A DNA stretch of 64,000 nucleotides from an uncultured Rickettsiales bacterium. GTDB lineage: Bacteria; Pseudomonadota; Alphaproteobacteria; Rickettsiales; SXRF01. The stretch lies in the NCBI GenBank assembly GCA_964535825.1, contig CAZHUC010000004.1:97065-161064 (forward strand). Reading direction: 5' to 3'. The notes under the pieces are model-generated. The model did not search any database and was not told the DNA's origin. It saw nothing but the letters and a program-made list of their open reading frames with translations. The position numbers and the translations under genes were made by a program. Positions 14,513 to 15,714 of the stretch are shown in pieces; positions within the stretch are counted from its first letter, which is position 1; each line of letters starts with the position of its first letter.

Positions 14513-14557
14513 AGTTTAACATAACCATTATAGGGGTTATGTGAACATTTTATGACA
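14513..14557 (-). promoter_or_regulatory. Direct-repeat box TGTCATAAAATGTTCAC plus 22-nt spacer plus -10 TAAACT (promoter of genes B-C-D)
   Basis: Box 14557-14541, -10 14518-14513 on the minus strand; same geometry at 15670-15714 and 58760-58804. Confidence 0.7.
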
Positions 14558-14579
14558 TGCCAGAAACCAGCTGTCGAGA

Positions 14580-15641
14580 TTAATGGGGGGTGGCCCTTGT
14601 ATGGTCAAAAGAAAGCAGGGCCTTTTCAGCAGCTGCAGCTACCCTGTCACGGTGGTAAGTGCTTGATTCTGGGTAATCTATCATGCTTTCATACGATGGC
14701 GTAGGTTTAGCTGTTTTGCCGTGCCCATTACCGTTTTTACCATTTTCTAGCTCTTCTCCAATGGCTTGGCCTGCAGCCTTCTGCTGTGCTTCCACTGCCT
14801 GGGCGGCTTCCTTGGAAACAACCCCTTTGAACCACATATCCGTCTTATCAAAGATACGGCGGAAAAGGTCACGATTCAGGCCAAAACTAGCACCAAGCGC
14901 ACCGAAGGTTGCCATGGATGCAGTACCAATTCCCAGCCCGTTCAGCACACCACCTTCAGCCACCAGCTTGCCTAGAATATGCTCGGCTGCACCGGTATAG
15001 GCGAAGAGTGCACCTGCAGCCACACCAGCAACAAGGCCAACCAGGGATACCTTCCAGAAAGCTACCCTGTTCTTCTTGTCAGGCTCAAGCTGGGCATAGT
15101 GGGTGGTGCGGTAAGGTTTATCTTCCATTTCCCGCGACAGAGTGTTGAACCCTGCGGATTGCTGTGCCGCACTTGCTGCGCCTTTCGCATCACCTTTGAT
15201 GATGGCTTTGATCTCGGCGATATCCTGCTTTAATTCATTGAATCTGCCTTCTTCATAAAGCTTTATGCGCACTTCGGCTTCTTCCTGAGCTGCTGCAACA
15301 GCGCCGGTTACTTTGCCTATATCGCCAAATTCATGCACACCGAACAATGCACCCGCAGAGGCAAATCCACCAACGATCGCTGCAGCCAGAGGCAATCCAA
15401 TTGTGGCCGCTGTGCCAGCGGTTGCAAGCGTCGCAATACCTGCGATCACACCACCAATGACGCCGCCAATCACCGCACCGATGACAAGACCACCGAATTT
15501 ACCCTTTACGCTACCTTTGTAGGATTCCCACCAGGCATGATGGTAATACGGACCCTCGTCATTCGGCGACATGCCCTGATCCATTTTCTTTTGTAATTCA
15601 AGGTACTTTTCGGTATCCATTCCCAAAAATCCTAGTGCCAC
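14580..15641 (-). CDS. Hypothetical glycine-zipper membrane protein with two hairpin domains (cassette gene A, 353 aa)
   Basis: GLVIGAVIGGVIGGVIAG glycine zipper; second Gly-rich hydrophobic block; start GTG 15641 or ATG 15620. Confidence 0.82.
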   Translation of the reverse strand: MALGFLGMDTEKYLELQKKMDQGMSPNDEGPYYHHAWWESYKGSVKGKFGGLVIGAVIGGVIGGVIAGIATLATAGTAATIGLPLAAAIVGGFASAGALFGVHEFGDIGKVTGAVAAAQEEAEVRIKLYEEGRFNELKQDIAEIKAIIKGDAKGAASAAQQSAGFNTLSREMEDKPYRTTHYAQLEPDKKNRVAFWKVSLVGLVAGVAAGALFAYTGAAEHILGKLVAEGGVLNGLGIGTASMATFGALGASFGLNRDLFRRIFDKTDMWFKGVVSKEAAQAVEAQQKAAGQAIGEELENGKNGNGHGKTAKPTPSYESMIDYPESSTYHRDRVAAAAEKALLSFDHTRATPH

Positions 15642-15669
15642 ACGGCGATAAATCGGTTGCTACATTACA

Positions 15670-15714
15670 ATCTTACCGTATTCTTGCCCTATAGAAAGTG
15701 AAAGTTTTGTGACA
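15670..15714 (-). promoter_or_regulatory. Direct-repeat box TGTCACAAAACTTTCAC plus 22-nt spacer plus -10 TAAGAT (promoter of gene A)
   Basis: Box 15714-15698, -10 15675-15670 on the minus strand. Confidence 0.7.

Follow-up and report, generated by a model that had tools for sequence, protein, structure and literature searches.

Pho-box-type direct repeats precede a gene cassette and VirB-type secretion genes in an uncultured Rickettsiales bacterium

Introduction

Which protein recognizes the direct repeats that precede a four-gene cassette (genes A to D) in an uncultured Rickettsiales bacterium, and which other genes of the organism share the element? The window analysed here is the whole stretch of 64,000 nucleotides (nt), C4:97065-161064, of a genome of 1.92 Mb in 12 contigs with 50% G+C. 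On its minus strand, genes A and B are each preceded by a Pho-box-type direct repeat that is followed at a fixed distance by a predicted -10 hexamer. The Pho box of Escherichia coli consists of TGTCA half-sites with an AAAA spacer and 11-bp phasing. Sequence comparisons within this genome and with its relatives indicate that the two cassette boxes are probably operators of one winged-helix response regulator, which is most likely the PhoB ortholog of the organism. The gene set that carries the box is best read as the regulon of a PhoB-type activator that would have been reassigned to secretion-linked genes, with the Legionella PmrA regulon as an analogue.

Two boxes upstream of the cassette genes

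Box A (TGTCAC-AAAAC-TTTCAC, TGTCACAAAACTTTCAC) is located at positions 15698-15714 of the window on the minus strand, and the predicted -10 hexamer of promoter A, TAAGAT, is found at 15670-15675, 22 nt (15697-15676) past the box. Box B (TGTCAT-AAAAT-GTTCAC, TGTCATAAAATGTTCAC) is located at 14541-14557 on the same strand, where it begins 22 nt past the stop codon of gene A, and the predicted -10 hexamer of promoter B, TAAACT, follows at 14513-14518, again after 22 nt (14540-14519). Both boxes have a score of 25.3 with the position matrix described below, and in each of them the half-sites start 11 bp apart and are oriented towards the genes. These boxes and hexamers, with their coordinates, phasing and orientation, had been proposed in an initial annotation of the window, and our reading of the minus strand bore them out. 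When the pattern TGTCAYAAAAYNTTCAC was searched with up to two mismatches, boxes A and B were the only matches in the window (0.11 expected). Transcription is predicted to start near 15663 at promoter A and near 14506 at promoter B.

An extra TGTCAT was noticed at 15729-15734 (minus), 20 nt upstream of box A and off the 11-bp phase. It falls within the 131-nt divergent region common to gene A and mce.

Enrichment and fixed spacing across the genome

The motif TGTCAY-N7-TCAY was found 35 times genome-wide, and 22 of these matches are intergenic (intergenic DNA being roughly 6% of the genome) against 0.54 expected from shuffles. With genes called crudely as the longest open reading frames, nearly all intergenic sites were observed to face a reading frame starting 25-105 nt downstream. 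A position matrix gave 39 intergenic matches at a score of at least 16 compared with 0.33 in dinucleotide shuffles (118 kb, 42% G+C), and the full composite pattern of the initial annotation gave 5 compared with 0.005, in keeping with the enrichment over shuffled intergenic DNA on which that annotation depended. The matrix was trained on the TGTCAY-N7-TCAY sites of this same genome and therefore the composite pattern and the cross-genome comparison weigh more as independent checks. A chance match in AT-rich DNA was ruled out by the intergenic dinucleotide shuffles together with a reversed control pattern, which had no match in any of 31 genomes.

Position counts over 42 intergenic sites read T-G-T-C-A-Y-A-A-A-A-n-y-T-T-C-A-Y, and boxes A and B both fit this sequence. 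We looked for -35-like conservation across the same 42 aligned sites and none was visible. In 11 of the 42 sites the hexamer TAnnnT was observed exactly 22 nt past the box, where the background per offset is 1.14 (Poisson 4e-8), and minor peaks at 10-12 nt and at 33 nt form with this one an 11-bp ladder. Tandem arrays of 3-6 half-sites in 11-bp phase also occur in the genome. The top-scoring box of the genome (26.2) leads an array of five to six phased half-sites at C4:32614-32697 (minus), and the gene behind it encodes a 72-residue DUF1150 protein.

These spacings bear on the idea that the motif is recognized by an alternative sigma factor, either sigma-54-like (TGGCAC-N5-TTGC) or of the extracytoplasmic function type, and is not an activator site. 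TGTCAC-N5-TTTCA is spaced like the sigma-54 consensus and has T wherever that consensus has a critical G. As sigma-54 promoters, however, boxes A and B are rejected by their GT and TC in place of the invariant GG (-24) and GC (-12), and canonical sigma-54 promoters occur separately in this genome (5 against 0.28 expected). A conserved sigma-70-type -10 comes 22 or 10 nt after the box, and the arrays of 3-6 phased half-sites are typical of OmpR-family binding. We regard a sigma factor element as extremely improbable.

Conservation across related genomes

The box of promoter A was observed to be nearly unchanged in ten further genomes in which the identity of the encoded protein falls to as low as 40%. 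All ten orthologs have TAnnnT exactly 22 nt downstream, in the form of TAAGAT, TATTAT, TAATAT, TACTAT, TATATT or TATGAT, and the spacers have diverged apart from a TTTT run and an AATA motif. At promoter B, the box and a TAnnnT at 21-22 nt are kept in seven further genomes, also with diverged spacers, and at both promoters the conservation extends across genera. This pattern supports the earlier proposal of two separate promoters, and our best reading of the sequence is that one promoter would serve gene A and the other genes B, C and D. A perfect TATAAT at 14532-14527, 8 nt past box B, was tried as the true -10 and ruled out because it is not conserved in the orthologs; TAAACT, the hexamer assigned to gene B earlier, is preferable.

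The exact pattern TGTCAYAAAANNTTCAY was found in all 19 genomes of the family at 2-20 copies per genome, and it is absent from 7 of the 12 other families of the order. No copy of the motif occurs in the three relatives without PhoB. From these sequence searches we estimate that the predicted regulon comprises about 45-55 promoters and is conserved across the whole family.

Genes downstream of the boxes

Most of the proteins encoded downstream of intergenic boxes, 37 of 41, cannot be placed in any Pfam family. The remaining four are a NagB-like enzyme, the DUF1150 protein, a protein with a weak asparaginase-like match and a VirB2/TrbC pilin. The pilin gene heads a complete VirB-type operon (C3:157117-169009) in which Pfam confirms VirB2, B4, B6, B8, B9, B10, B11 and VirD4, and boxes precede both virB2 and virB4 (C3:168562-169019). 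The virB2 and virB4 promoters of eight genomes, including one outside the family, read TGTCAA-AAAA(C/T)-TGTCAC and the box ends exactly 10 nt ahead of an extended -10 such as TGTGnTATnAT. The predicted virB2 and virB4 promoters are, in sequence and geometry, textbook PhoB promoters, and the distance of about 10 nt that the initial annotation gave for canonical Pho boxes is thus also found in this genome.

We noticed that the sequence of the second half-site changes with the distance to the -10. For example, when the -10 lies at 9-12 nt, the second half-site is mostly GTCAY with G at box position 13 (7 of 9 sites) but when it lies at 21-23 nt, the half-site is mostly TTCAY with T at this position (17 of 22; Fisher p = 0.003, in a test chosen after seeing the data). 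The cassette promoters fall into the 22-nt class.

The orphan proteins behind the boxes are candidate secretion cargo. We infer this role from their co-regulation with the secretion genes, the lack of known families and a C-terminal VGL motif noticed post hoc. Of the 41 box-driven proteins, 5 have VGL among their last 9 residues, compared with 0 of the 1806 remaining open reading frames (Fisher 4e-9; VGL had been noticed before the test), and the tripeptide may be a C-terminal export signal. When the amino-acid composition of the C-termini was compared with that of the remaining proteome, the regulon proteins showed only a mild difference. The phylogenetic profile of VirD4 was also tried as a discriminator and it has no discriminating power, since chromosomal VirD4 is present in all 31 sampled genomes of the order, which fits a Rickettsiales-like order.

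A further array does not face a reading frame. Four phased half-sites (TGTCATGGTTAGTTCAC-AGAAC-TGTCATAAAATTGTAAC) are located between lptB and rpoN (C1:64200-64417, minus) and face a stretch of about 190 nt that contains no open reading frame and has a GC-rich hairpin with a T run at its end. This stretch is a candidate box-driven small RNA by its sequence features. An Rfam search of the box-driven intergenic transcripts, this one included, gave no match.

Candidate regulators of the genome

Four full-length OmpR-family regulators are encoded, namely PhoB, CtrA, an OmpR/EnvZ-like pair and a CopR/CusR-like pair. The PhoB ortholog (C8:22863-23591) scores 332 bits with TIGR02154 against a cut-off of 296 and is the single ortholog above it; CtrA scores above its own curated cut-off. 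The best matches of the PhoB DNA-binding domain are the E. coli PhoB structures 1GXP, 1QQI and 3T72. The recognition helix (RTVDVHVRRLRKGL) is nearly identical to that of E. coli (RTVDVHIRRLRKAL) and the wing arginine is retained. Within the family PhoB is 85-99% identical and its recognition helix is invariant.

Several known operators were compared with the boxes and rejected. Canonical CtrA boxes (TTAA-N7-TTAAC) are found elsewhere in the genome (10 against 3 expected), for example at the ctrA and flagellin promoters; CtrA therefore has its own sites, and boxes A and B do not fit them. The literature motifs of ChvI, CusR and CenR are excluded by a different sequence or orientation, those of the ChvI type being TTGC-N3-GCAA and GCC-N8-GCC (PMC9731502). 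No regulator of the genome reaches the cut-off of the PmrA model.

In addition to the full-length regulators, an atypical protein of 182 residues (C8:9347-9892, minus) combines a degenerate receiver-like N-terminus with an OmpR-type winged helix (THTLETHIYRLRTKL). Its gene sits about 13 kb from phoB in many genomes of the family. By phylogenetic profile this protein does no better than PhoB and has one counter-example.

Phosphate genes without boxes

The pst and pho genes are all present and are scattered over the genome, with phoR-pstCAB at C9:16669-21140, pstS at C3:111251-112285, phoU at C2:90096-90806 and phoB at the position given above. The pstC promoter is a plain sigma-70-type CTTGAC-N17-TAGTGT (C9:18100-18200). 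The pstS gene overlaps and follows the outer-membrane gene of an RND efflux operon without an intergenic gap (C3:111251-113876). As pstS has no promoter region of its own and the pstCAB promoter is plain, phosphate uptake seems to be constitutive or, if not, outside the control of PhoB.

The promoters of these genes provide the first of several observations that weigh against PhoB as the box-binding protein. In this genome no box scoring at least 11 was found ahead of pstS, phoR-pstCAB, phoU or phoB. Across the order, pstS was observed to be without an upstream box in 27 of the 28 genomes examined, the sole box being that of G021, a genome without PhoB, and when 20 genomes were searched for autoregulation, none had a box upstream of phoB. 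The targets at the core of every known Pho regulon are therefore absent here; in gammaproteobacteria no PhoB targets are more conserved than those ahead of pstS and phoB (PMC10294691). Furthermore, the main geometry of 22 nt to the -10 is unlike the classical 10 nt, three other winged-helix regulators are encoded besides PhoB, and four relatives encode PhoB yet have no exact copy of the motif.

The orphan gene directly downstream of phoB was found to have its own box (TGTCATAAAACTGACCT) with TAAAAT exactly 22 nt on (C8:23631-23675, plus). This box is kept only in the closest relative, G002.

The boxless pst genes and phoB leave two explanations, in which either PhoB has been redirected or another regulator of similar specificity binds the box. 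In the second of these the boxes would be the true operator of the same regulon and would be bound by the OmpR/EnvZ-like pair (C8:25704-27697), the 182-residue protein or the CopR/CusR-like regulator (C8:60293-60976). The absence of boxes from the pst genes and phoB favours such a regulator. The OmpR-like protein, however, retains the OmpR-type helix SIDVQITRLRK, and a helix of this type predicts GTTAC-type sites with 10-bp phasing. The 182-residue protein is present in most motif-rich genomes, near phoB, but the complete genome G003, with its 7 exact boxes, does not encode it. Regulators of the CusR type have inverted repeats as their boxes (ATTACAAnnTTGTAAT; PMC6989116).

The 22-nt geometry also invites comparison with CenR of Rhodobacter sphaeroides (PMC9275681). 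There, as here, an 11-bp-phased direct repeat is located directly upstream of the -35 position in a co-directional arrangement, the sites precede many envelope and hypothetical proteins, and the CenR core TGA-N8-TGA is the reverse complement of the box core TCA-N8-TCA. The orientation of the core is nevertheless opposite, since CenR sites read TGA along transcription and the boxes here read TCA. In addition, CenR sites have neither the TGTCA nor the A-tract signature, and CenKR is reported to be absent from Rickettsiales, Holosporales and Pelagibacterales. The virB boxes, which are textbook Pho boxes at the textbook distance, also stand against a different regulator. We consider such a regulator unlikely, although it deserves more weight than the other alternatives, and PhoB is retained as the preferred candidate.

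If PhoB binds the box, the regulon could still be an ordinary phosphate-scavenging one in which the box-driven genes encode phosphate-starvation proteins without a link to secretion. The Pho-type box would suit this explanation, and PhoB, PhoR, PstSCAB and PhoU are all encoded. The classical Pho regulon was rejected, however, as all of its core genes were located and none has a box, here or in relatives. By Pfam no phosphatase, phosphonate protein or phosphate transporter is found among the 41 box-driven proteins, most of which have no family at all, and it is the secretion-system promoters that have the box. An ordinary Pho regulon thus appears very improbable. The initial annotation had offered either PhoB or an unrelated virulence or lifestyle regulator, and these two alternatives merge in the redirected regulon preferred here, where PhoB is the best candidate for the regulator and the regulon is one of secretion and lifestyle without the pst genes.

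Cassette genes and their neighbourhood

The gene order of the window is alphaproteobacterial, with nuoN-birA-coaX-rnj on one side of the cassette and mce-proS-lolCDE-dnaE on the other. Gene A (14580-15620, minus; ATG at 15620) encodes an orphan protein of 346 residues with glycine-rich hydrophobic hairpins and no Pfam family. Its relatives were found in 19 of 31 related genomes and the majority of them align from residue 1. Gene B (13771-14490, minus) heads the B-C-D unit and encodes an orphan membrane-hairpin protein of 239 residues, as judged from the reading frame, a Pfam search and the orthologs; its start codon is either TTG at 14490 or GTG at 14478. Gene C (13337-13771, minus; 144 residues) is probably co-transcribed from promoter B because its ATG overlaps the gene B stop codon. 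Gene D (12842-13327, minus) starts 9 nt past gene C and encodes a glycine-zipper orphan of 161 residues; it is the final gene of the unit and is convergent with rnj. A terminator was sought in the 22 nt between the gene A stop codon and box B and none was found, so the gene A transcript may read through into gene B.

A third, weaker box of the same regulon (TGTCACAATAATATCAT, score 21.2) is located at 58788-58804 on the minus strand of the window, with TATAAT exactly 22 nt past it (58760-58765, minus). The gene behind it (58205-58753, minus) encodes a glycine-rich orphan of 182 residues without a Pfam family. Its ATG at 58753 comes 6 nt after the TATAAT and therefore the mRNA may be leaderless or nearly so.

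Proposed mode of action

A phosphorylated dimer of the regulator would occupy the region from about -51 to -35, bound in head-to-tail arrangement to the two direct half-sites, and would recruit the housekeeping sigma-70 RNA polymerase to promoters in which the -10 is not accompanied by a -35 element. One such promoter would serve gene A, and the second would drive genes B, C and D. Low phosphate is a possible inducing signal, with PhoR-PstCAB-PhoU as the sensing route.

Comparison with known systems

The closest functional analogue of this predicted regulon is the PmrA regulon, and the closest system by sequence and protein is the Pho box with PhoB. The promoters resemble those of pstS, phoA, phoB and ugpB in E. 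coli (PMC10294691) in their TGTCA direct repeats, 11-bp phasing, A-rich 4-bp spacer and lack of a -35 element. Tandem arrays of half-sites also occur, as at E. coli pstS, the PhoB recognition helix is almost identical and the virB promoters use the classical 10-nt gap. They differ in that the cassette and 22 other sites have their -10 at 21-23 nt, a distance of about 10 nt being confined to virB2, virB4 and a small number of tandem-box promoters, and in that the second half-site is mostly TTCAY and not GTCAY. The content differs as well, since pstS, pstCAB, phoU and phoB are boxless and the regulon consists of a secretion system and orphan genes.

PmrA activates about 40 Icm/Dot effector genes of Legionella pneumophila and of Coxiella burnetii, according to Zusman et al. 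(2007) as cited in PMC6989116, and the Legionella PmrA element is usable as a handle for effector discovery (PMC6989116). As in that regulon, a winged-helix response regulator would act here through a direct repeat at a fixed distance from the -10, and the element precedes secretion-system genes together with dozens of scattered, fast-evolving genes. The PmrA consensus consists of TTAAT-type repeats, whereas the box here is of the TGTCA type and the predicted regulator is PhoB and not PmrA. Furthermore, the system is type IVA (VirB) and not type IVB (Dot/Icm), the organism is alphaproteobacterial and its cargo is only candidate cargo.

Control of a VirB-type operon by an OmpR-family regulator, which is predicted here, has precedents in alphaproteobacteria, where BvrR/BatR control virB in Brucella and Bartonella and VirG acts through the vir box in Agrobacterium (PMC4086400, PMC10538546). 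Agrobacterium virG is itself induced by phosphate starvation, a finding of Winans (1990) given here as cited in PMC4086400. The vir box, however, is a 12-bp element and not a Pho box, and no VirA/VirG system was noted here.

Implications

The cargo of type IV secretion systems in Rickettsia-like bacteria is very hard to find because it shares no sequence family and the organisms cannot be grown. A promoter tag common to the secretion genes and to about 50 orphans would give a direct and testable list of candidates, for which the PmrA element in Legionella and Coxiella is a comparable precedent. No such regulon was found described in the literature that combines PhoB with type IV secretion, and the literature examined on basal Rickettsiales makes no mention of PhoB, the promoter or the regulon.

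We consider it possible, although somewhat short of an even chance, that in this deep-branching Rickettsiales-like family phosphate uptake has lost its link to the PhoR-PhoB phosphate sensor, that phosphate limitation serves as the signal for host or prey cell contact and that the Pho box marks a catalogue of effectors. If this is true, about 40-50 candidate effectors could be listed in each genome from sequence alone by means of the Pho box, and the four-gene membrane-hairpin cassette would be among them. The regulon would, in addition, clearly exemplify a nutrient regulator that is deeply conserved and whose DNA specificity has been kept while its set of targets has been replaced.

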